In this document: positions 1-10,956 of the stretch, piece after piece
Numbering within the stretch: position 1 is the stretch's first letter
How the letters are laid out: each line of letters opens with the position of its first letter
DNA from: a virus
Taxonomy: Duplodnaviria; Heunggongvirae; Uroviricota; Caudoviricetes
Reading direction: 5' to 3' (one strand)
Length of the DNA: 10,956 nucleotides
Virus record (IMG/VR): IMGVR_UViG_2541047722_000006
Position numbers and translations under genes: made by a program
The notes under the pieces: generated by a model
Databases searched by the model: none
What the model was told of the DNA's origin: nothing
The model's input: the letters and a program-made list of their open reading frames with translations, nothing else

Positions 1-165
1 CTCATGCTGGCGAACCCAGACACGCAGAGTCTCCGGCGTACAGCCAATCTTTGGAGCAATGGAACAAATTGTCGCCCATTGTGAGTCATATTCGCTCTGA
101 CTTTCCAGAACCATACGGACTGCCCGTTGACGGACTTCGGGGGAAAAACGAGTATTTTTAGTCAT
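1..165 (-). CDS. IS629 transposase OrfA, N-terminal part (continues beyond window start)
   Basis: ATG at 165-163 (minus) preceded by AGAGGT, giving [55 protein letters not shown], identical to OrfA of the complete copy. Confidence 0.85.
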
Positions 166-219
166 CCTGTTTACCTCTTTCTCAGGAAGTTTAGTCTCCA
201 GGATTCCCGGGGCGGTTCA
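1..219 (-). mobile_element. IS629 (IS3 family), partial copy running off the window start; left terminal repeat at 219
   Basis: The reverse complement of 1-219 is identical to the first 219 bp of the complete copy at 3495-3713 (TGAACCGCCCCGGGAATCCTGGAGACTAAACTTCC...). The terminus abuts unrelated sequence at 219/220. Confidence 0.9.
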
Positions 220-731
220 GCCCTGTTAACACTGCCACTGTTGGGCAACTTCAGAACCACTGTCTCACCGCATTATCTCAAGGCGCAACTGAATTAAATA
301 TCCATATATCAAGTCAGGGAGGGGAAACTGCTGCTGGCTTTACTGCGTATAACTTTCTTAAGTCACTCCCTGTTACCGTTAGAACTCACAACATAAGCAA
401 TGTTGAATCCATAGCTAATATCGTTTTCCTGGCTGGCTCAGAACGTTTCGCAAACCCATTATCAAGATTCCTGTTACATCCTCTATTATGGTGCTTTGCC
501 TCCCCAGCCGCCGACCATGCCAGATTGAGAGAGTACGGGAAATGCCTCGATAACGATCTTGATCGCTTCGTTGAGACGTTCAATATCGACATCGGAACCC
601 ATATTAGGTGGGCATCCCTGATAGCAGACTCGACCATTTTGGATGCTAACAAGGCTCTTGAGCATGGCATAATTAATTCCATAAAAACTGCAAGGCTGGC
701 ATCCAATCAGGCAAACTGGTGGGTTGTTTGA
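220..731 (+). pseudogene. ClpP-like (peptidase S14 fold) serine protease gene, 5' end removed or interrupted by IS629
   Basis: The plus frame is open with no stop from the IS629 junction (220) to TGA at 729-731. The translation (...NIHYSSGGETAAGFTAYNFLKSLPVTVRTHNISNVESIANIVFLAGSERFANPLSRFLLHPLL...IADSTILDANKALEHGIINSIK) aligns by eye with E. coli ClpP ([63 protein letters not shown]...[21 protein letters not shown]). Candidate Ser/His/Asp positions are present. There is no in-frame start between the junction and the TTG at 525, and about 40 or more N-terminal residues expected from ClpP are missing. Confidence 0.55.
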
Positions 732-756
732 TGGGTAAATCATGATTACTCCTTAT

Positions 757-778
757 AAAAAACCCACCTGACGGTGGG
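757..778 (-). terminator. Rho-independent terminator of the 188-aa/YafO-like operon (possibly bidirectional)
   Basis: Hairpin CCCACC-tgac-GGTGGG (763-778) directly after the YafO-like stop codon (780-782); on the minus strand it is followed by TTTTTTAT (762-755). On the plus strand only TTT follows. Confidence 0.55.
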
Positions 779-779
779 T

Positions 780-1229
780 TTAGTCAAACATAGTGTTTCT
801 AAAGTCTCTCGCATACCCTGCTAACACTCTCATTCTATTATGATTGTTAGCAGACATGTGAGCTACAGGATGAAAAAGAGCAATCAATGAATACCTGTTC
901 TCATCAAAAAGATTTTGTGCATAAACGAGAGCGGTATTGGATGTTTTATGCCACTGCAACTTTTGCGGTGTGCTGATATCTGTGCCATTTTTTATTGGCT
1001 CAAATTTATTTTCACCAATTGCTAAATGAAGGTGCATAAGGCCTGCATCTTCAATATCAGGAGGTCGATGATAAGAGGTGTCTCTGCCAAAATAGCTGGG
1101 CAACGTTCCCGTAGACTTGTAGATGATAAAATCATCTACAAGTGTTTGTTTTAAATCAGGAAACTCAACAAAAACCGGGGAGAAAAAATAGTCAAAACTA
1201 TCCTGATTATATTCCACGGTTACTTGCAT
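780..1229 (-). CDS. YafO-family toxin-like protein (type II TA toxin family, ribosome-dependent mRNA interferase), 149 aa
   Basis: ATG at 1229 preceded by GAGGT plus a 5-nt spacer, 8 nt after the stop of the upstream gene. The translation shares the motifs I recall from E. coli YafO: DFIIYKSTGTLPSYFGRD (YafO DFISYKRDGVLPDTFGRD), HLHLA (HIHLA), ALVYAQNLFDE (HLVYCQGAFDE), and a C-terminal AHMSANNHNRMRVLAGYARDFR (HKLARDNNQMHKIGKMAEAFR). AT-rich. Confidence 0.7.
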   Translation of the reverse strand: MQVTVEYNQDSFDYFFSPVFVEFPDLKQTLVDDFIIYKSTGTLPSYFGRDTSYHRPPDIEDAGLMHLHLAIGENKFEPIKNGTDISTPQKLQWHKTSNTALVYAQNLFDENRYSLIALFHPVAHMSANNHNRMRVLAGYARDFRNTMFD

Positions 1230-1237
1230 GTTTTACC

Positions 1238-1804
1238 TCAGTGGAAGTTACCAGAGTGAAACACACGAGTCCCGTGCTCAGCAAGCGCACGCAAACCAGC
1301 CATATCTACGGAACTATCAAAAACAACCGGAACACATGAGCGTTGTTTAATAAGACTATTCAGGTTGGTTACGGCAGATCTGGCATCAGCAACAACGATA
1401 TAGATATCTCTTGCGATCTCTTTAAAATCAGCAGAAGCTTCTTTGAATACCGATTTCATTGCCCCTTCAAGTCCTCTCAATTGATGCTCTATCAATCGAG
1501 ACTTTTCTGGTTCAATGATAGACAACACATTGTCTACATTCTCATCGGTAGCGTTTGCAAGAACACGATAAGCGTATTTCAGCATTCGAGACAATTCTTT
1601 AATCGAAGACACCGCCTCATGAAGCTCATCATTAGCCCGTTCACTGCTGAATGAGGATTGATGGTAAGCGTGCTGAACGTTATCAGTAACAACCACCTCA
1701 CAACTGAACGCAGAAGCTTGCTGTAATAGCAAACCTATTGCGACTCCAGCTTTGGCAGCGTTCAAGCTAAACATTTCATCAATCCCATTAGTCTCATTGC
1801 TCAT
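1238..1804 (-). CDS. Hypothetical 188-aa protein, first gene of the operon with the YafO-like toxin; no family recognised
   Basis: ATG at 1804 is preceded by a perfect AAGGAGG Shine-Dalgarno with a 5-nt spacer. The ORF track's longer 198-aa version starts at a TTG (1834) without a ribosome-binding site. The protein looks mostly helical, with no HTH or catalytic motif I can recognise, and is not YafN/Phd-like. Confidence 0.65.
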   Translation of the reverse strand: MSNETNGIDEMFSLNAAKAGVAIGLLLQQASAFSCEVVVTDNVQHAYHQSSFSSERANDELHEAVSSIKELSRMLKYAYRVLANATDENVDNVLSIIEPEKSRLIEHQLRGLEGAMKSVFKEASADFKEIARDIYIVVADARSAVTNLNSLIKQRSCVPVVFDSSVDMAGLRALAEHGTRVFHSGNFH

Positions 1805-1871
1805 ACAAACCTCCTTCTTATCGGAGATTATCAATAGCTATGCATCCATTGAATACACGCTATGCGCAATA

Positions 1872-1900
1872 AGTTTACGTCACGTGATATCATTATGCAA
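1872..1900 (-). promoter_or_regulatory. Putative sigma70 promoter of the 188-aa/YafO-like operon with an embedded palindromic operator candidate
   Basis: On the minus strand: TTGCAT (1900-1895), 17-nt spacer, TAAACT (1877-1872), about 65 nt upstream of the ATG at 1804. The spacer contains the perfect 8-bp palindrome TCACGTGA (1880-1887). Prediction by eye only. Confidence 0.3.
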
Positions 1901-1979
1901 CCACCGTTCTATCACCGACTAACTTTACTCCCACTCCTATACATCATCTGGTATCCTGCGCAAAACTAAGGAGGTTGGT

Positions 1980-2330
1980 GTGAATGCTCAGTCTGTCATC
2001 ATGGTTTTCCTTGGGCTGATTGTCGCAAAACTATATCCAGACTGGTGGAAAGGGGCATTAGCTACTGTCGCCATCTATTTGCTTTTATCCATCGTTAAGC
2101 GATCACTCGCTGAGACCGTAAATCAAGCAAAACGTTTCTCATTTAAGAGTTTAATAAACTATGTTACTGGGCTTATTTTTTGCCTTTCAATTCTGATCGC
2201 TTCGGCTTTTTTGCCCGTATCAATAGCTAATTTTTTTGGCGCACCATATGAGGTAGGTTATCTATTCTCTGTTTCCTGTCTTGCCATTGCTCTTCTTTAC
2301 CTGTGGACGAGATCAAAGAATAAAAATTAG
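1980..2330 (+). CDS. Small multi-pass inner-membrane protein (116 aa), possible superinfection-exclusion-type moron
   Basis: GTG start at 1980 with a strong AAGGAGG (1968-1974) 5 nt upstream. Three to four hydrophobic helices (SVIMVFLGLIVAKLY, ALATVAIYLLLSIV, LINYVTGLIFCLSILIASAFLPV, VGYLFSVSCLAIALLYLW) and a basic C-terminus (TRSKNKN). AT-rich, convergent with gp16. Confidence 0.6.
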   Translation: MNAQSVIMVFLGLIVAKLYPDWWKGALATVAIYLLLSIVKRSLAETVNQAKRFSFKSLINYVTGLIFCLSILIASAFLPVSIANFFGAPYEVGYLFSVSCLAIALLYLWTRSKNKN

Positions 2331-2347
2331 CCATCCGTGGCTGCCAG

Positions 2348-3494
2348 TTATTGAGCTTCTTTTTGTGATGCCTGTGCGACTCTGGTGAGCGATTGTGTGA
2401 CCGTACTGATCGCTCTGTCATATGCTGTGCTACCTTTTGGCGTATTTGCCAGACGTAACAAGGCATTTCGTATAACAGGGCTTTCGTATGCCTTCGCAGC
2501 TCCTCCTACGACACCAGCAGCAGGAACAACAAACGCAGCCGTTTTTAGCATCCCCGCTAATACTGCTGCGTTTATGATGCCACCACCAACTAACAATCCA
2601 TAAAGCTGCTGACCATTTAAGTTTTGAACGTTCGCTTTTGCCGCGTGTCTTGTATCGTTGAGGTATTTAATAACGCCGTCCAGTTCCTTTCCATGTACGC
2701 CTTTAAAGAAAGTTGCTGATTGCTTCCTGTTCCGGTGTAACGCATTAATAAACTTTTCAACACTAATATTTCCAGACGGATCAGTCGCCTTATCTACAGC
2801 ATTCTGAACTATGGCTGCTCGTGCGTTTTGCCTACCATTGTCATCCAGAAGCCTGTAAAGCTGAGAACGTTCTGATGGGTTTTGGCTAAAAACGAGTTTT
2901 GTTACATCCTCAGGTGTAGCCTTGCCGCTGGCTATTGCCTTTTGAACGCGCGTTCTTCCCATCATGTCATTGAATCTAGCCCATGAGCGATCAACCCTAG
3001 ACATATTGGCAGCTTCTTCTGAGCCTAGTTTTTGGGATACTGCTTTTTTCATATCCGCTGTATATGCCTTGTAGACAATATCGCTGGCTTTCTGGAGCGT
3101 GTCTTTATCAACAGTCTCGTTTGAATTCATGAACCGCTTTCGAAGGTCAGTTCTGTTTTCTCTCGCCAGACGCAGGTCATTGGGTCCGCTGGTGATATCG
3201 TCTTTAAATTGCTGCAAGACTTTTACCGCGGCTCTATCCTGAGATTTGCCCGGGCGGCTTAACACGGCAATCTGATTGTCGATAGCTTTTACCGTGTTTG
3301 AGAGATCGACAGGGGTATCCCCCATAGCGTCAATTATGCGGTTATATCGCTTTCCTGCTGCCTCAATGAATTTTTGTTGCCCTTTAGTCGCAGATTCATA
3401 AAGCTGTTTATCAGAAATGCCACCCAGACCATCGCTAAATGTTCTGACTAAATTTTCTCGTGCTTGTTGTTGATTCAGCCGATTCTTACCGGTT
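2348..3494 (-). pseudogene. P22 gp16-like DNA-ejection (transfer) protein, C-terminal fragment separated from its 5' part by IS629
   Basis: The minus frame is open from the IS629 junction (3494) to TAA at 2350-2348 (checked codon by codon for 3326-3494). It is in frame with the N-terminal fragment once the IS and one copy of the duplication are removed. Position after gp20 matches P22 gene order. Confidence 0.8.
3492..3494. repeat. Target-site duplication (GTT), left copy, of the IS629 insertion in gp16
   Basis: GTT immediately precedes the IS629 terminus TGAACCGCC at 3495; the same triplet follows the other terminus at 4805-4807. Confidence 0.6.
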
Positions 3495-3548
3495 TGAACC
3501 GCCCCGGGAATCCTGGAGACTAAACTTCCTGAGAAAGAGGTAAACAGG

Positions 3549-3875
3549 ATGACTAAAAATACTCGTTTTTCCCCCGAAGTCCGTCAACGGGCAGTCCGTA
3601 TGGTTCTGGAAAGTCAGAGCGAATATGACTCACAATGGGCGACAATTTGTTCCATTGCTCCAAAGATTGGCTGTACGCCGGAGACTCTGCGTGTCTGGGT
3701 TCGCCAGCATGAGCGGGATACCGGGGGCGGTGATGGAGGGCTCACCACCGCTGAACGTCAGCGTCTGAAAGAGCTGGAACGTGAAAATCGTGAACTGCGC
3801 CGCAGTAACGATATCCTTCGCCAGGCTTCCGCTTATTTTGCGAAGGCGGAGTTCGACCGCCTCTGGAAAAAATGA
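3549..3875 (+). CDS. IS629 transposase OrfA (108 aa, HTH DNA-binding part)
   Basis: ATG at 3549 preceded by AGAGGT. The protein has the leucine-zipper-like C-terminus ([29 protein letters not shown]) typical of IS3-family OrfA. Confidence 0.9.
3867..3873 (+). promoter_or_regulatory. Putative programmed -1 ribosomal frameshift site (A6 run) for the OrfAB fusion transposase
   Basis: AAAAAA at 3867-3872 lies at the end of orfA, just before its TGA (3873-3875); orfB begins in the -1 frame at 3872. IS3-family elements are known to make a fused OrfAB transposase by -1 slippage. Confidence 0.5.
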
Positions 3876-4762
3876 TGCCACTGCTGGATAAGCTGCGTGA
3901 GCAGTACGGGGTCGGACCGCTATGCAGCGAACTGCATATTGCCCCGTCAACGTATTACCACTGTCAGCAACAGCGACATCATCCGGATAAACGCAGTGCC
4001 CGTGCGCAGCGCGATGACTGGCTGAAGAAAGAGATACAGCGCGTATACGATGAAAATCACAAGGTATACGGTGTGCGTAAAGTCTGGCGTCAGTTGTTAC
4101 GGGAAGGTATCAGAGTGGCCAGATGCACTGTGGCACGTCTCATGGCGGTTATGGGACTTGCCGGTGTTCTCCGGGGTAAAAAGGTCCGTACGACCATCAG
4201 CCGGAAAGCCGTTGCCGCAGGCGACCGCGTAAACCGTCAGTTCGTGGCAGAACGACCTGACCAGCTGTGGGTGGCTGATTTTACTTACGTCAGCACATGG
4301 CGGGGCTTCGTCTATGTGGCGTTCATCATTGATGTGTTTGCCGGATACATCGTGGGGTGGCGGGTCTCATCGTCCATGGAAACGACATTCGTGCTGGATG
4401 CACTGGAGCAGGCGTTATGGGCCCGTCGACCGTCCGGCACGGTCCATCACAGTGATAAAGGTTCTCAGTATGTATCGCTGGCCTACACACAGCGGCTTAA
4501 GGAAGCCGGATTACTGGCATCAACAGGAAGTACAGGCGACTCGTATGACAACGCGATGGCGGAGAGCATCAATGGTCTTTACAAAGCGGAGGTAATACAC
4601 CGTAAGAGCTGGAAAAACCGTGCAGAAGTGGAACTGGCCACACTCACGTGGGTGGACTGGTATAACAATCGACGATTGCTGGAAAGGCTGGGCCATACTC
4701 CTCCGGCAGAAGCAGAAAAAGCTTATTATGCTTCCATCGGAAACGATGATCTGGCAGCCTGA
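3872..4762 (+). CDS. IS629 transposase OrfB (DDE/RNase H-fold catalytic part, 296 aa); expressed mainly as an OrfAB fusion spanning 3549-4762
   Basis: ORF in the -1 frame relative to orfA, overlapping it by 4 nt. Contains motifs of an IS3-family integrase core (WVADFTYV...HHSDKGSQY...[15 protein letters not shown]). Confidence 0.9.
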
Positions 4763-4804
4763 GTTCACAGATAAAACACTCTCCAGGAAACCCGGGGCGG
4801 TTCA

Positions 4805-4807
4805 GTT
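4805..4807. repeat. Target-site duplication (GTT), right copy, of the IS629 insertion in gp16
   Basis: GTT directly after the IS629 right terminus at 4804, matching 3492-3494. Confidence 0.6.
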
Positions 4808-5676
4808 CCAAAAAAAGGAACTCTTTCGCCTAATGTCTGAGCCTGACTCTGCATAAAGGTTTTATCTTTCAGCGTGTCACTGGTCATTAACGGCAGGTTT
4901 CTTTCCGACGCAAAATCGACAGCAGCCTTTGCTTCCGGTGACATCTCACCGCGAACAGCCCTGGAAACCGCACTAACTGTATTTTCCAGCCCCTTGCCAA
5001 CACCACCAATGCCAGCAGAAATTACCGTTTGTGCAGGATCAATATCTTCTCCGCCAGCAAGGCTGGTGCCACCCTGTAGTGCTAAATCTGTAGCAGCTGA
5101 TTTCCCTATGGCACCAAGCACCGTTCCAGCCCTGCCCGCTGGTGTGAACGCTAACGCATTAGCAAGAAACGAAGTCAGGTCTTGCGGTGATAAACCTGGC
5201 TTGTTCAGGGCATAATCACCGGATGGCAGGGAAACGATAGTGTTACCCTTCTCATCCTGCCTTAATTTCGCCCCCATACTCTGAAGAATCTTTTCCTGAG
5301 ACGCGTCGGAGCCGAAAAGTTGAGACCATCCAGCCTTCAGGGCATCCATGCTTAGTGAGTTCAACTCAGGGGCAGCCCCAACATTTTGCAGTCTCTCCAT
5401 TTCTGGTGTCATTCGGCTTTCACCGGTAACGGCATCGCGCATTGCAGCACCTAAAACAGCCCCTTGCTCAGCAGAGCGATCTAGTCCTTCCTTCTGCTGA
5501 GTGGCAAGCTGTGCATATCCTGATGCAAGTGAGTTGTCTGCTGGCGATTGCTGAACACCTTGTTGTGTTGGCGCTGACTGACCAGCAAAATACTCATCAA
5601 TGGCGGACCCAATATCTTCCGTGCTCGTACCATCAGGAAAGGTAAATGTCTTACCATTTGCAGTTACTTTCATCAT
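4805..5676 (-). pseudogene. P22 gp16-like DNA-ejection (transfer) protein, N-terminal fragment truncated by IS629
   Basis: ATG at 5676 overlaps the gp20 stop (ATGA). The N-terminus [33 protein letters not shown] matches my memory of P22 gp16. The present ORF (4765-5676) reads 12 codons into IS629 (EPPRVSWRVFYL) before stopping; native sequence ends at 4805. Confidence 0.8.
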
Positions 5677-7124
5677 TCCACCGTAAATTGAATGCCTGAT
5701 TTTGACGTGTAGCTACCTCCTGCTGATTGCTGAGTAGCTGGCTGTTGCCTTGATGATTTCTTCCCGCCATTACCAACATTAACGTTATATTGCTGGTTGT
5801 AATTGTCGGTATATTGCTGAATGTCGCGCATTGATTGTTGCAGCGCTTCAGGACTTGAGAAATCAGGCTTTGGCATACCCTGAAAATACCTATTGGCCTC
5901 TGCTTCGGTGTTGATGCCAGATGCCCCCATATCTCGGGCTGCTGCAATCCCCTGATTTTGCATTTTGCCCATGATTCGCTGTGCAGCGTTGTATAGCCTC
6001 CTCTCCTCAACACCAGATGCCCTGCTACGAATATCTGCACCAAGAGCAAAAGAACCTGAAGAACCTGTAATACCTGTCATGAAGCCAAGATCGTCAATTG
6101 ATGCGCCAGAAATTGCATCAAGATCTTTCTTCATTTCGTAATTCTGTGCATTAGCTGCCGATGTAGCCGGAGCAGCAATAGAACTGGCGGGGACGCGAAT
6201 CATATTGCCCTCGTTGTCTATTCCTTCGTAGAACGCATTAGCACCAGCGCCGTGAAGCTTCCTACCAACCGTTACCGTTCTGCCATCTGCCAGTTGCACA
6301 ACATTCTCCCCGCCAGCATCAGGACGACCTCGAACACGAAGATATGTCTTTTGTTGCTCTGGAGACAGGCTGTTGAAATATTGATATTCTTTAACAGATG
6401 CAGGAACAGCACCTCCAGCAGTGCGCAGGGAGTTTTCACGGCTAACAGCAATGCTTTGCGCCTTTAAACCTTCCCCAGCTTTATTGCTGCGAATCGTCTC
6501 TGCCAACTTGCCACGCTCAATATCCCGACCTTCCATTTGATCTTTGATATCGAAATACTTCTCATGACCGAGAGAAAATAGTGCCAGATTACCTGCGAAG
6601 TGCTGGAAGCCCTGCGGGTCATTAACCTGCATTTCCGCAATAGTTTCTGGAGGGATACCTAAACGACGCATCTCCTTTTCGTTATCCATCATGAACCTGC
6701 CAAATGCACCCGGACCAAGCGACGAAGCGACCTGAGCCTTAAGCGCCAGATTGCCAAAATCATCCCGCTGGGCGTCATCGACATACCCCATGCCTTTACG
6801 GACTTCCTCAAACTCTTCGGGGAATGCTGTAATAAGATTACGCATCTGCTCCCTGTCGCCGGACGCATAAGCATCCGCATAACCTTTCTGGAATGCCGCT
6901 TTACGCTCCTGCTTTTGCTGCTGCTTATAAATATCAGCAACTCCAGCCAGACCACGAAGACCTGTCAGAGCAACGTTATTTGCACCTGATCGAGCCAGTT
7001 CATTGTTTTCGCGGATCAGACCAAGCGTTGCGTTAATGTCGCTTGCCTTTGGCGCATTCTCATTTTGCGTACCGATGCCAGCCAGAAACCCACCAGAATT
7101 AATACCCTGTTGCCACGTAGCCAT
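5673..7124 (-). CDS. P22 gp20-like DNA-ejection (transfer) protein, 483 aa
   Basis: ATG at 7124 with GGGGT 5 nt upstream. Size (P22 gp20 is about 471 aa), position between gp7 and gp16, and a Q/N/G-rich low-complexity C-terminus are typical of ejection proteins. Confidence 0.85.
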
Positions 7125-7134
7125 TGATTACCCC

Positions 7135-7827
7135 TTAAAACAACGAGCCAAGCAGACCAAGACCAGCACCGATACCAGCACCCCACGGAGTTGATAGCTC
7201 GAGAGCACTGGCTATGCCACCACCCAAAAGCGCACCGGATGCAGCACCACTAACACCCTGCTGCAATGCTGACGGTCGGTTGGCGTTTGCCGCTGCAAGA
7301 GCCGCGCTTTGCTGTGAAATCTGACTCATGTTGTTGGCATATGTTTGCCCGGCGTTTGCCTGCCCCTGAAGAGCGCCAAGACCGATATTTGCCAGGTTGT
7401 TGTAATTGTTCATTTGTCCAGATAGCCATTGCTGACCAAGCGTTGGTGCGATTGTTGCTAACTGATTACTGGTTGCGGTGGAACCCAATCCACCTGTTGC
7501 TTCCGCTGCCGCCAGACTCTGATAGCGAGCCTGACCTGCAAGGTCTTTATACTGCTGAGAGTTGTAATACTGGTTAAGTGCCTGACCTTGCCCTTCCAGA
7601 GACGATAAGTTCTCAAGGCTGCCGACATACTTCCCAGCCAGAGGAGTAAACAGCTTCAGGTTGTTCATGATGGTGTTGAACTGCTGATTTTGCAGGTCTG
7701 CGGCATACTTCTGAGCTTCTGCTGCATACTTTGCGCTTTTATCAGAACTGCCACCTTTCCCGCCTTTTTCAGGGTAATAAGGTTCCTCGCCGCGCAGTTT
7801 TCTGCCCAGCGTAAATGCATATAACAT
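7135..7827 (-). CDS. P22 gp7-like DNA-ejection (transfer) protein, 230 aa
   Basis: ATG at 7827 with GGGAGA 5 nt upstream. The N-terminus MLYAFTLGRKLRGEEPYYPEKGGKGG matches my memory of P22 gp7 (229 aa); the C-terminus is glycine-rich and hydrophobic. Confidence 0.85.
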   Translation of the reverse strand: MLYAFTLGRKLRGEEPYYPEKGGKGGSSDKSAKYAAEAQKYAADLQNQQFNTIMNNLKLFTPLAGKYVGSLENLSSLEGQGQALNQYYNSQQYKDLAGQARYQSLAAAEATGGLGSTATSNQLATIAPTLGQQWLSGQMNNYNNLANIGLGALQGQANAGQTYANNMSQISQQSAALAAANANRPSALQQGVSGAASGALLGGGIASALELSTPWGAGIGAGLGLLGSLF

Positions 7828-7829
7828 GG

Positions 7830-8285
7830 CTATCTCCCGTGATTCAGGAAGTCGATTAGTTCTTCGCGTGTGGCGCTGTAAAACGTCACGTCATCCACGC
7901 CTTTGAAGTATTTCTTGATGGTTCCTACACGCTTAAGGCCAATCATTGCGCAGTACATCTGCCCGTGGCGGAATTTGCGTGCAGCAAATGATGTGACGCA
8001 CTGAACGGTGGTGTTGGTCAGAATGTATCGCCAGAACGCCAGCCCTATTTCCTTGCTGAAGCCGCGAATCTCTGGCAGGTACATGGCGTGGCAATCGAAT
8101 GTAAGCGGCTGAATCTCCTGATAGTAAACAATGCCGCCAAACTGACCGTGCACGTTCACCTCAAAGTAACGGCAATCAGGTTTGTAGTCGTATCCATCAC
8201 CGTTGTTGCTCCCGGCGATGATGTCAGGGTGATTTCCTACTGCTTCGATCAGGTCGATGTTTCGCGTTGGTTTGAATGTAATCAT
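7830..8285 (-). CDS. P22 gp14-like virion/head assembly protein, 151 aa
   Basis: ATG at 8285 overlaps the gp26 stop (TGATG). Assigned mainly by synteny between the tail needle and gp7; I do not recall the P22 gp14 sequence. Confidence 0.7.
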   Translation of the reverse strand: MITFKPTRNIDLIEAVGNHPDIIAGSNNGDGYDYKPDCRYFEVNVHGQFGGIVYYQEIQPLTFDCHAMYLPEIRGFSKEIGLAFWRYILTNTTVQCVTSFAARKFRHGQMYCAMIGLKRVGTIKKYFKGVDDVTFYSATREELIDFLNHGR

Positions 8286-8986
8286 CAGTCAATCAGCCCA
8301 TGTAATCTAAGTGCTGTTTCAAGCGCCAGAATACGCTGCCGCGCCTGCTCCAAACCTGTAGCGATAGCTGCGACTTCGGATTGTGTGTACGTAGTGCCGA
8401 CCGTGTATGACTGGTTAGCGTTGAATGAGCCAAGAAGTGGTGTGCCTGTGGCCGCTGTCCATCCGGTCTGCCTTGCTCCAACGACCTGAATTCCATCAAC
8501 TGAATATGATGTTTTTACATCCAGCGGTGACGCAAGAGACTGCGATTCTGTTACGGTTTTCGATACGTAATCACTCTTAATGTCAGATATATCGCTTTCT
8601 ACGCCATCCAGTCTTTGGTCAACAGTGACCAGATGCGCCTGAATATCGATAACCTCATCCAGCAAGTAATCAACATCGCTACGCAGTACAACTATCTTCC
8701 CTTCGGCGGTTGTTAACCTGACCTCAAGGAGATTTATCGCTTTTGTGTTTGCGGTGATTCTTGCATCGTGGTCAGCCAGTTCGACATCCTGTTCATCGTT
8801 TTTCACCTGAGCATCGTAAGCGCCCTGACCAGCCTGATTTGCTTTCCCGGCAATTGCGCCGACATCAGCCCCCTGATTAATGACATACAGCAGGTAAGAC
8901 TGGCTGAATATATTGCGTGGAAGGATTGATGTATCGAGCCGCGTCGCCTGCACAATAACAGGGGTGTTGAGATTCGAATCAGCCAT
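8285..8986 (-). CDS. Tail needle protein (P22 gp26-like), 233 aa
   Basis: Start taken as the ATG at 8986, which overlaps the gp10 stop (TAATG). From there the protein begins [73 protein letters not shown], close to the P22 gp26 N-terminus as I recall it, and ends ...LRLHGLID. The longer ORF-track version starts at a GTG (9088) inside gp10. Confidence 0.85.
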
Positions 8987-10404
8987 TACTCGATCCTTAT
9001 CTGGCAGCCAGACAGAGTGACAGGTGACTTCGTGATAACGCGCAATTTGAAGCCGACATTTTTCCTGATGCGCCCGACTCGCTTCCACAAAACGCGTTTG
9101 TCGTAAACAAACGGTTCATTCTGCTCAATCATCTGCTCACGACCGTAATTGATGCCGTCAGTGGTTGCAGAGAGAAAAAGGCGGTCGGCGTACTGCGCAA
9201 CGCCAGTTGAAGATTCAACTTCAAGGTCGAAAACTCTGGCGTTATCCGCTTTGAACAGAGGAGTAAACAGCAGATGCTCCTGTTGCTTGTCGTACTGGCT
9301 GCTGATGTCGAATTGCAATTTCCCGGTCACGGACTCCAGCTTATCGCCGCACGTTATCTGATTGCCTTCGTAAATGAAGTCGATAGCGCGGTACACATCG
9401 TCATACAGACCTGTTTTCAGTACACACCATTGCGGAGCATTGGCGCTTGAAGATGCGTCGTATACGAGGACATGGCGCGGAAGATGGATAATCAGCAGCT
9501 CATGCGCATCAAATCGCAGAGACTCCATCACACCATCAGCCAGTTCATCAGCAGTGTAGGAGCGAAGAATTTTCTCAATGCTCGCGCTGGCGATTGGTGA
9601 CACCTGCCCGGAACCGATGATGTATACAGACGGCGCACCTGTTGCCGGATTGCTGATGAACGCATAGGAATCAGCGAATGGCGTTTTGCAATAGGTTCCG
9701 GCGATGCCTTTTTGCACCATCAGTGATGGCTGTGCGACATACAAAGCAGCACCAACGGTGGTTGCGCCAGTCAGGGAGAAATATTCAATAGTCGATGAAC
9801 CAAAGCAGACGATGAAGTCTCGCCATGTCCCGATACCGATGATGCCGTCCGGCTGCGATTCTGCGCGATATTGTGCACTGTATCGGTCAGGGTGCGATTC
9901 GTCTTCAAGGTCAGTGATAAACCATGAATCAGTTCCGTCTTTTGACCACGCATAACGCCCACGTAAGCGAGTAATGTCGCGAACTGAACCTAACTCATAC
10001 TGCGTGAATCCACTGTCTGTAGGCCAGTTTGAGACGGTTTTAACCGTGCCATCATAACGATACTCGACCAGTTGACCATTAACGCCTACAGCCTGTGATG
10101 TTCGACCATGCGCCATTGATACGCGACCACTTCCGGCGACGTCACCGACTTCGCTTTCTCCTTTGTACAGCTTGCCGCCACACACGCGATAAACAGCACT
10201 CTGCGCCATGTTGTACTCGACGCCGCGCGATATACCATTCACATCAGAACGTTTGGCAATGCCCGGGAATGAGCGAAGATATCCGCTGCTGTTCAGGATT
10301 TCTTTGGGCGTAGCCAACATATTCACTGGCAGATAGTCGATATAGTCGGCGTTTCGAAAGTCTTTGCCGACACCTTTCATAAGCGGAAGTTGCTGAATCG
10401 GCAT
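8986..10404 (-). CDS. P22 gp10-like head-completion / packaged-DNA stabilisation protein, 472 aa
   Basis: ATG at 10404 with GAGGTG 5 nt upstream. The N-terminus [49 protein letters not shown] matches my memory of P22 gp10, and the length is the same (472 aa). Confidence 0.9.
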
Positions 10405-10413
10405 TTATTCACC

Positions 10414-10861
10414 TCACGTACTCGGATCATCTTTCTCGATGTAAAACCGATTCCACGTAAACGCGCTTTTGTTACCACTACCGCGAGGCATGTCATTTCG
10501 CCGCTCAAGTGGTGGTATTTTGGTTAAAGCGATACAGATTGTCTGATATGCACTGTCAGCAGCGGTAAGGAGAGCGTCTGACGGCTGAATGACGTTATCC
10601 ATGCACACTTGCACAGCGAGTTTCAAAGCGACGCCATCATTTGCCCATGCAGGGATGCCTGAATCATCGTCAGGTAACGGCATGATGCCGTTTTCTGTAT
10701 CAGCAAACTGATACCCAAGCTCGATACCTTTCGCCTGCCATGCTGCCATCATGTCTTCGAGGTCATTAATGGCATCTTCAATTGCCTGAGGGTCAGCATC
10801 TGTCAACGTGGCATTGGAATACAGCCCGGCTTTTCGTAAAGCCTTTAGAACGAGATCACCC
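10414..10861 (-). pseudogene. P22 gp4-like head-completion / packaged-DNA stabilisation protein, 5' end interrupted by IS629
   Basis: The minus frame is open from the IS629 junction (10861) to TGA at 10416-10414. The translation from the junction, GDLVLKALRKAGLYSNATLTDADPQAIEDAINDLEDMMAAWQ, resembles the P22 gp4 N-terminal region (MQIKTKGDLVRAALRKLG... as I recall it), so only a few codons and the start codon are missing. The TTG at 10806 used by the ORF track is not a credible start. Confidence 0.7.
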
Positions 10862-10956
10862 TGAACCGCCCCGGGAATCCTGGAGACTAAACTTCCTGAG
10901 AAAGAGGTAAACAGGATGACTAAAAATACTCGTTTTTCCCCCGAAGTCCGTCAACG
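10862..10956 (+). mobile_element. IS629 (IS3 family), partial copy running off the window end; left terminal repeat at 10862
   Basis: 10862-10956 is identical to the first 95 bp of the complete copy (TGAACCGCCCCGGGAATCCTGGAGACTAAACTTCCTGAGAAAGAGGTAAACAGGATGACTAAAAATACTCG...). Confidence 0.9.
10916..10956 (+). CDS. IS629 transposase OrfA, first 13 codons (continues beyond window end)
   Basis: ATG at 10916 with the same AGAGGT ribosome-binding site as the complete copy; translation [13 protein letters not shown]. Confidence 0.8.
   Translation, partial: MTKNTRFSPEVRQ

Follow-up and report, generated by a model that had tools for sequence, protein, structure and literature searches.

A probable single IS629 transposition into the ejection-protein gene gp16 of a decaying, probably CUS-3-type Escherichia coli prophage

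The locus considered here raises the question of whether an insertion sequence lying within the gp16 gene of a tailed-phage prophage arrived by one simple transposition or is instead the product of recombination between copies, and of what its presence means for the prophage. The window (the whole stretch of DNA that was analysed, 10,956 nucleotides of the virus record IMGVR_UViG_2541047722_000006) had been described in an earlier note, made from the letters alone, as holding a simple and probably recent insertion. Taken together, the present comparisons make it very probable that a single, recent IS629 transposition has knocked out gp16 of a P22-like, probably CUS-3-type E. coli prophage, and that this prophage is decaying.

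The element and its insertion site

Positions 3495 to 4804 (plus strand) hold a complete 1310-bp IS629 of the IS3 family, whose transposase is encoded on the strand opposite gp16 and of which 100% identical copies occur in many E. coli genomes. Over positions 1-1310 it shares 99.5% nucleotide identity with the element annotated by its depositors as 'insertion sequence:IS3 family IS629' in LC567824.1, and the match to that mobile_element feature is exact in extent, with the same termini, and above the threshold of at least 95% full-length identity. The terminal inverted repeats are imperfect, with 23 of 25 positions of IRL (3495-3519, plus strand) matching IRR (4780-4804, plus strand), and possess the TG...CA ends typical of IS629; the letters at the left junction run CTTACCGGTT and then, inside the element, TGAACCGCCCCGGG, and those at the right junction run CCCGGGGCGGTTCA and then, in the flank, GTTCCAAAAAAAGG. 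Within the element, orfA (3549-3875, plus strand; 108 aa) carries an HTH_Tnp_1 domain and orfB (3872-4762, plus strand; 296 aa) carries the HTH_21, rve and rve_3 domains of a DDE transposase core, and the NF033516 transpos_IS3 profile matches both (E 1e-93 for orfB). An ALIL pseudoknot (RF01497; 3830-3946, plus strand; 120.2 bits, E 1.8e-31), also annotated by RefSeq in identical IS629 copies, extends across the A6 run and the overlap of orfA with orfB; it is predicted to act as the programmed -1 frameshift signal joining the two frames. The variant is the one that encodes transposase WP_151327001.1. The identification of the element in the earlier note as a 1310-bp IS629 is thus borne out by its end-to-end identity, its termini and its two reading frames.

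The triplet GTT adjoins IRL at 3492-3494 and IRR at 4805-4807, base for base where it had previously been placed and bordering the true termini of the element, and its length falls inside the 3-4-bp range of target duplications that IS629 produces (PMC3271280). As a 3-bp match on both sides is expected by chance once in 64 cases, the triplets are weak proof by themselves, and the empty site is therefore the decisive test. E. coli S88 provides this site in locus L002, its CUS-3-type prophage, with which all of the prophage sequence in the window agrees at 100% identity: 220-3494 corresponds without gaps to 3826-7100 of that locus, and 4805-10862 to 7098-13155, with zero substitutions in the flanks across 9.3 kb. 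The two alignments share exactly three bases, GTT, and the duplication is thereby proven against the empty site. It is possible to imagine the element as a recombinant of two different IS629 insertions, with its flanks derived from separate events, as recombination between copies does occur in this prophage, where the IS629 at the left end of the window joins a clpP-like gene to a tailspike fragment, and in related genomes, where an IS629 connects the 3' part of gp16 with the O or dnaB genes or with a segment in inverted orientation. However, two separate insertions that recombined would leave non-matching flanks or a deletion, whereas the sequences on either side of the gp16 copy are direct neighbours in the intact S88 allele and share the exact 3-bp duplication, and such an origin is improbable in the extreme. 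Judged from this alignment, the insertion in gp16 is a clean, simple transposition with a 3-bp duplication, and the earlier claim of a simple insertion rather than a recombination product holds, the two flanks sharing exactly one GTT in S88.

The source is a short-read scaffold in which the window forms a single contig bordered on each side by an N-gap inside another IS629 copy, so that both the unbroken path through the 1.3-kb element and the perfect match (100%) of its interior depend on the assembler. The junctions may accordingly be real but have been joined by the assembler over a collapsed repeat, the true layout possibly having arisen when an inversion between IS copies followed the insertion; the placement of the contig between two such gaps would suit this, as would a related locus (L008) in which a similar insertion (duplication AAG, gene nucleotides 852-854) was followed by an inversion that separated the gene halves. 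However, the gp16 copy was assembled without N whereas the other two were left as gaps, which suggests read-pair support, and this layout is considered very unlikely; even if it applied, the prophage would first have undergone a simple insertion that duplicated 3 bp.

The distribution of the empty and filled sites bears on the age of the simple insertion. The empty site is found at a coverage of at least 80% in 374 complete E. coli genomes, with 272 records at an identity of at least 99%, and neither filled junction is present in any of the complete genomes searched. The 302-aa chimeric product that starts at the second ATG occurs on a single public contig, KE699353.1 of GCA_000456885.1, which is the source scaffold, and the 303-aa product that starts at the first ATG has no exact-product record. 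One full-coverage record in the junction search was rejected as a filled site, being a different insertion (APEC E12053), and strain 504239, where fragments annotated 'phage DNA ejection protein' stand on both sides of an IS629, was rejected as the same locus, its prophage context being a different one by dsdX/dsdA. The empty site in about 374 genomes, the filled site in none of them and the single contig point to a simple transposition that is confined to this strain and probably recent. By these database comparisons the insertion is specific to one isolate, and the probable recency proposed at the outset is supported both by the uniqueness of the filled site and by flanks free of substitutions relative to S88.

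The interrupted gene and the outcome for its product

Removal in silico of the IS and one GTT restores a minus-strand frame that runs without a break from 5676 down to 2348, with 671 codons from the first ATG, whose product is identical to S88 WP_000868966.1, named by RefSeq 'P22-gp16 family phage DNA ejection protein'. The restored frame of about 671 codons that the earlier note had described therefore stands, but its start is to be revised. The gp20 stop overlaps the second gp16 ATG as ATGA, like P22 genes 20 and 16, and RefSeq and the gene caller both place the start at this ATG, so that gp16 is more likely a protein of 670 aa beginning at 5673. The excision and alignment suggested as a check thus return the intact S88 allele and a protein colinear with P22 gp16 (BLASTP E 6e-53, 30% identity, residues 180-653 against 151-592). 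The P22 protein is 609 aa long, and the N-terminal ~180 residues of the reconstructed protein have no BLASTP alignment to it and are unrelated by that measure. Gene 16 of P22, ST64T and others is matched by tblastn, and PF26808 (Phage_P22_gp16) is listed for the N-terminal fragment in a precomputed Pfam table. No family in local copies of Pfam-A or NCBIfam matched the reconstructed gp16 by hmmscan, and the homology consequently rests on BLASTP and tblastn, gene order, the precomputed PF26808 entry and the RefSeq name. On this evidence the split gene is classed, by homology, in the P22 gp16 family.

Immediately upstream of gp16 lie homologs of gp20 (5673-7124, minus strand; Inj_translocase domain, E 9.9e-81) and of the ejection protein gp7 (7135-7827, minus strand; PF25688, E 8e-129). 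The genes gp10, gp26, gp14, gp7, gp20 and gp16 follow the P22 order on the minus strand with gp16 as the last of the ejection cluster, in the same gp7-gp20-gp16 position as P22 gene 16. The structural module at window 6921-10862 is 99.6% identical over 3.9 kb to that of CUS-3 from E. coli K1 (RS218), although the window copy is full of IS629, whereas window 4805-6920 has no match to the CUS-3 reference at megablast level, so that gp16 and the gp20 3' region of CUS-3 constitute a different mosaic allele. A 343-bp tailspike fragment is left in the source scaffold, which has gaps where sister loci carry endosialidase and hexapeptide-transferase genes; related loci possess an endosialidase tailspike, a hexapeptide acetyltransferase (neuO-like) and an integrase (PMC8653822).

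The insertion leaves two halves of gp16. The 3' part (2348-3494, minus strand; gene nucleotides 870-2016 including the stop), 100% identical to S88 L002 5954-7100, is without the native start, and the mechanical reading frame at 2348-3325 (325 aa) opens at internal Met347. The 5' part (4805-5676) forms a truncated chimeric frame with the element (4765-5676, minus strand), composed of 291 native residues (290 from 5673) and 12 residues read from the IS (EPPRVSWRVFYL), with its stop at 4765-4767. The model proposed here is that an intact, transposition-competent IS629 entered gp16 once, at codon 290/291, by the copy-out/paste-in mechanism that may be assumed because IS629 belongs to the IS3 family, and that the target GTT (AAC on the coding strand) was thereby duplicated. 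The gene is cut into a 5' piece with its short IS tail and a 3' piece that has neither promoter nor start codon of its own, and the ejection protein would be abolished. In P22 the E-proteins are needed for DNA delivery into the host and are dispensable for particle assembly (PMC4992974). It is by homology with P22 only that the present gp16 may be taken to travel in the virion, to leave it at infection and to be required for DNA delivery, and its loss of function is likewise expected by analogy. The P22 gene 16 null phenotype, in which particles assemble and DNA delivery fails, would be the expected one, but it would be hidden by the other damage to the prophage.

Further IS629 copies and the state of the prophage

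The gp16 event is accompanied by IS629 damage at no fewer than two further places in this prophage, and the window holds three copies in 11 kb. The first 219 bp of a second IS629 occupy positions 1-219 (minus strand), and the first 94 bp of a third occupy positions 10863-10956 (plus strand), each with its IRL facing inward and a scaffold gap at the window end. That both ends of the window are IS629 copies had been overlooked. The third copy interrupts gp4 at codon 6 as a simple insertion whose target duplication is CCC/GGG. The left-end copy truncates a clpP-like gene at codon 9 and joins it, with no matching duplication, to a 51-bp IS629 remnant and the tailspike fragment, and it borders a deletion of ~2.7 kb that removed the ant/arc region along with the portion of the tailspike gene coding for the N terminus. 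With gp4 split and the ant/tailspike region deleted, complete virions are unlikely to form at all. The earlier expectation that gp16 loss would render virions non-infectious is thus sound for P22 gp16 and too narrow for this prophage, which, as read from its gene content, is defective for several reasons beyond gp16 and is a decaying remnant, not a phage one mutation short of function.

Recurrent insertion in gp16 and significance

Four independent IS629 junctions, from this and other isolates, fall in 26 bp of gp16 (nucleotides 852-854, 870-872, from 871 in the opposite orientation, and from 875), in the stretch around a T7 tract (gene nucleotides 852-877; window 3487-3494 and 4805-4825); other isolates have T6 or T8 in place of the T7 run, which shifts the frame. 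Of five sites, four fall into 23 bp within the 216 bp over which sites were ascertained (p ~0.02), but the sites came via an ORF-based lookup that detects disruptions between nucleotides 823 and 1039 alone, and APEC E12053 has a sixth IS629 insertion outside the cluster, at ~nucleotide 1365, so that the evidence for clustering is weak. Two candidate causes were rejected: the predicted fold of the GGTTCC-A7-GGAAC palindrome is no more stable than that of shuffled sequence (-3.2 kcal/mol, z 0.24), and the region is no closer to the IS629 ends than shuffled sequence. It is therefore doubtful, though possible, that this stretch is a true mutational hot spot. IS629 is described in the literature as having no local target preference. 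Were the hot spot real, a local preference, perhaps for the A/T tract, would run contrary to that view, and gp16 inactivation in CUS-3-type prophages would be recurrent and possibly favoured; the repeated hits in 26 bp would be of modest interest for IS target choice, given confirmation in an unbiased survey.

Compared with the IS629 of E. coli O157:H7 prophages and Stx phages, the present element is the same 1310-bp sequence, with identical termini and 99.5-100% nucleotide identity. It likewise carries orfA and orfB with a -1 frameshift (predicted here), generates a duplication in the 3-4-bp range and belongs to a mostly prophage-located population, 62% of O157 copies lying in prophages or prophage-like elements (PMC3271280). 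The host, in contrast, is a K1-type prophage background and not O157, and the gp16 target and exact site have no entry in the O157 site lists compared. The insertion is thus an ordinary knockout of a prophage gene by a well-known element. It nevertheless marks one E. coli isolate in a clean and datable way, and the window as a whole offers a textbook case of prophage decay via an IS629 burst. A CUS-3-type prophage so crippled, and unable to excise as a phage, would leave its remaining cargo fixed in the chromosome, such as the capsule O-acetyltransferase gene neuO that is present in sister genomes.

IS629 and its target site in gp16

The element that interrupts the P22-type ejection-protein gene gp16 occupies positions 3495-4804 (1310 bp), as determined by reading of the sequence from 2200 to 5800 together with a scripted check, and it runs from TGAACCGCCCCGGG... 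to ...CCCGGGGCGGTTCA, with terminal inverted repeats identical at 23 of 25 positions. Along positions 1-1310 it shares 99.5% identity with a feature annotated by the depositors of Stx2 phage LC567824.1 as "insertion sequence:IS3 family IS629", whose boundaries are those of the match, and numerous E. coli chromosomes and plasmids carry copies 100% identical to the 1310 bp. The transposase is read from the plus strand and gp16 from the minus: orfA (3549-3875) and orfB (3872-4762) match an IS3 transposase model, with HTH_Tnp_1, rve and rve_3 domains across the two, and an ALIL frameshift pseudoknot (Rfam, 120 bits) is found at 3830-3946. Given these termini, the full-length identity, the transposase domains and the pseudoknot, the copy in gp16 looks complete and competent, as judged from its sequence. 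IS629 has been described as lacking a sequence-specific target and as producing target duplications of 3-4 bp, with 62% of copies in O157 genomes located in prophages or prophage-like elements (PMC3271280).

As the earlier note had observed, GTT flanks the element on both sides (3492-3494 and 4805-4807). Because a 3-bp match alone has a 1-in-64 chance of being coincidence, the empty site was sought as a 200-bp reconstruction in 5,426 complete E. coli genomes, where it was present at a coverage of at least 80% in 374 genomes and at an identity of at least 99% in 272 records; S88, APEC O1 and ATCC 11775 are among those listed at 100% identity. When compared with the intact prophage of S88 (locus L002), positions 220-3494 correspond to 3826-7100 and positions 4805-10862 to 7098-13155, both ungapped and 100% identical, and the two alignments share exactly three bases, GTT. 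This overlap proves a 3-bp target-site duplication, such that the triplets border the true IS termini as proposed.

The restored gp16 frame and its prophage setting

As interrupted, gp16 encodes 291 native residues followed by 12 IS-encoded residues and a stop. Removal of 3495-4807 yields an open minus-strand frame from 5676 to 2348, of 671 codons from the first ATG, in agreement with the length of about 671 codons previously put forward, and its translation is identical to WP_000868966.1 of S88, named "P22-gp16 family phage DNA ejection protein" in RefSeq. The protein is probably 670 aa long, since RefSeq as well as the gene caller place the start at the second ATG, which the gp20 stop overlaps (ATGA). 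The expected colinearity with P22 gp16 was borne out by BLASTP (E 6e-53, 30% identity), which aligned residues 180-653 with P22 residues 151-592; the N-terminal ~180 residues gave no BLASTP alignment with P22 gp16. Matches by tblastn are gene 16 of many P22-like phages, and PF26808 (Phage_P22_gp16) is assigned to the N-terminal fragment in the precomputed Pfam table; hmmscan of gp16 against local Pfam and NCBIfam copies found no family. Upstream, gp20 (Inj_translocase, E 1e-80) and gp7 (E 8e-129) follow the P22 gene order. The IS lies at codon 290/291, within a segment (...FFGTGKNR...) aligned with P22 ...LLGTGGKR....

Phage CUS-3, from E. coli K1 strain RS218, shares 99.6% identity with positions 6921-10862 and has no megablast-level match to the gp16 and gp20 3' region, which is thus a different mosaic allele. 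The boundary falls between 4805-6920 and 6921-10862, with the CUS-3 match extending from 6921 onward only, and the closest phage protein among the rows listed for this allele, which takes in the gp20 3' end and the whole of gp16, is that of N7 (70% amino-acid identity). In sister loci there are genes for an endosialidase tailspike, an integrase and a hexapeptide acetyltransferase, the same gene set with which CUS-3 and neuO have been described (PMC8653822). Between gp16 and an immI-like region, also on the minus strand, lie a 188-198-aa ORF without a family match (1238-1834) and, directly downstream, a YafO-family toxin gene (780-1229; NF007377, E 4e-22, under the curated cut-off); the two may form a toxin-antitoxin moron of the prophage in which the toxin has an unusual partner.

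Probable recency of the insertion and other disruptions of gp16

The 302-aa chimeric product is on record in a single public contig (GCA_000456885.1, scaffold KE699353.1), the window being exactly one contig of that scaffold, bounded by two runs of N. No complete RefSeq E. coli genome contains the filled junction on either side; the one record covering a filled junction fully proved to be a different insertion. The flanks carry no substitutions relative to S88 over 9,333 bp. The single contig, the lack of filled junctions in complete genomes and the substitution-free flanks argue for an event that is strain-specific and probably recent, although in KE699353.1, a short-read scaffold, both the joining of sequence across the repeat and the identity seen for the IS interior rest on the assembler. 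Together with the exact GTT duplication, this sustains the initial reading of a simple, probably recent transposition.

A look-up of the 325-aa C-terminal ORF, which detects disruptions at gp16 nt 823-1039 only, yielded 88 blocks of the collection that contain it, and among the loci returned the same allele has been broken independently in several ways. IS629 is inserted simply at nt 870-872 in the source; in opposite orientation and joined to O or dnaB genes from nt 871 onward in L004, L010 and five complete genomes (H41-H45, of which H41 alone was inspected); from nt 875 onward in L007 and L012; at nt 852-854 with duplication AAG and a subsequent inversion in L008; and at nt 998-1000 with duplication TTG in L013. 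The opposite-orientation junction is 1 bp from the window's site. IS629 junctions at nt 852-1000 occur in L004, L007, L008, L010, L012, L013 and L014, several junctions in other isolates being inverted or linked to prophage genes that lie far away (O, dnaB); four of these independent junctions are no more than 26 bp from the window's site. A T7 run at nt 861-867 (A7 at window 4810-4816) adjoins the insertion site and has lost 1 bp in L005 (T6) and gained 1 bp in L009 (T8), with frameshift products 295 and 292 aa long. Such changes could reflect either slip-strand mutation or errors in sequencing the homopolymer. In APEC E12053 O2:K1:H4 (L017, NZ_CP126928.1, 1891-3200), an identical IS629 copy lies in the same gp16 allele at ~nt 1365, where 6 bp (AACCCT) have been lost and a target duplication is absent, and a further IS629 is located at the end of gp7.

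Four of five IS629 sites fall inside 23 bp (p ~0.02, within the nt 823-1039 interval), and neither hairpin stability nor likeness of the target region to IS629 ends was found to explain the clustering. A gp16 hot spot for IS629 is a weak, unproven possibility; a simpler reading is that insertions are tolerated in prophage DNA of lineages with a dozen or more IS629 copies, as indicated by 13-27 matching places per record.

Further IS629 copies and the state of the prophage

Partial IS629 copies overlooked in the earlier note, 100% identical to the internal copy and each with its IRL facing inward, occupy both window ends (1-219 and 10863-10956). The right-hand copy (junction 10860-10878; source locus L003 3200-3240 and 4795-4830) is a simple insertion with duplication CCC/GGG into gp4, a tail-accessory gene, at codon 6, cutting off the start MAKTK(G) from the remainder. 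Relatedness to S88 changes at this copy, from 100% inside the window to 99.1% in the coat-side sequence beyond it (L003 2174-3225, 9 mismatches in 1,052 bp). The left-hand copy (region 195-731; L003 15455-17522) truncates, at codon 9, a clpP-like gene of the prophage. On the other side of a scaffold gap, the far end of this copy is followed by a 51-bp inverted IS629 remnant (IS within IS), beyond which lies a 343-bp fragment from inside the tailspike gene. Relative to the S88 order, some 2.7 kb is absent here (arc, a mnt-like gene, ant and the tailspike N-terminal part), and there is no matching duplication; in contrast to the clean gp16 insertion, the left-hand copy arose by recombination or deletion. 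Since these two lesions accompany that in gp16, the prophage is a multiply damaged remnant. The proposal that gp16 loss would render virions non-infectious holds for P22 gp16 but is too narrow here: this loss is not the sole obstacle to infectious virions, as gp4 and the tailspike region are also hit.

The original observation is thus confirmed and its interpretation supported. The insertion in gp16 is not novel and represents ordinary biology, as the IS, its target duplication, the gene family and the tendency of IS629 toward prophages are all already known.
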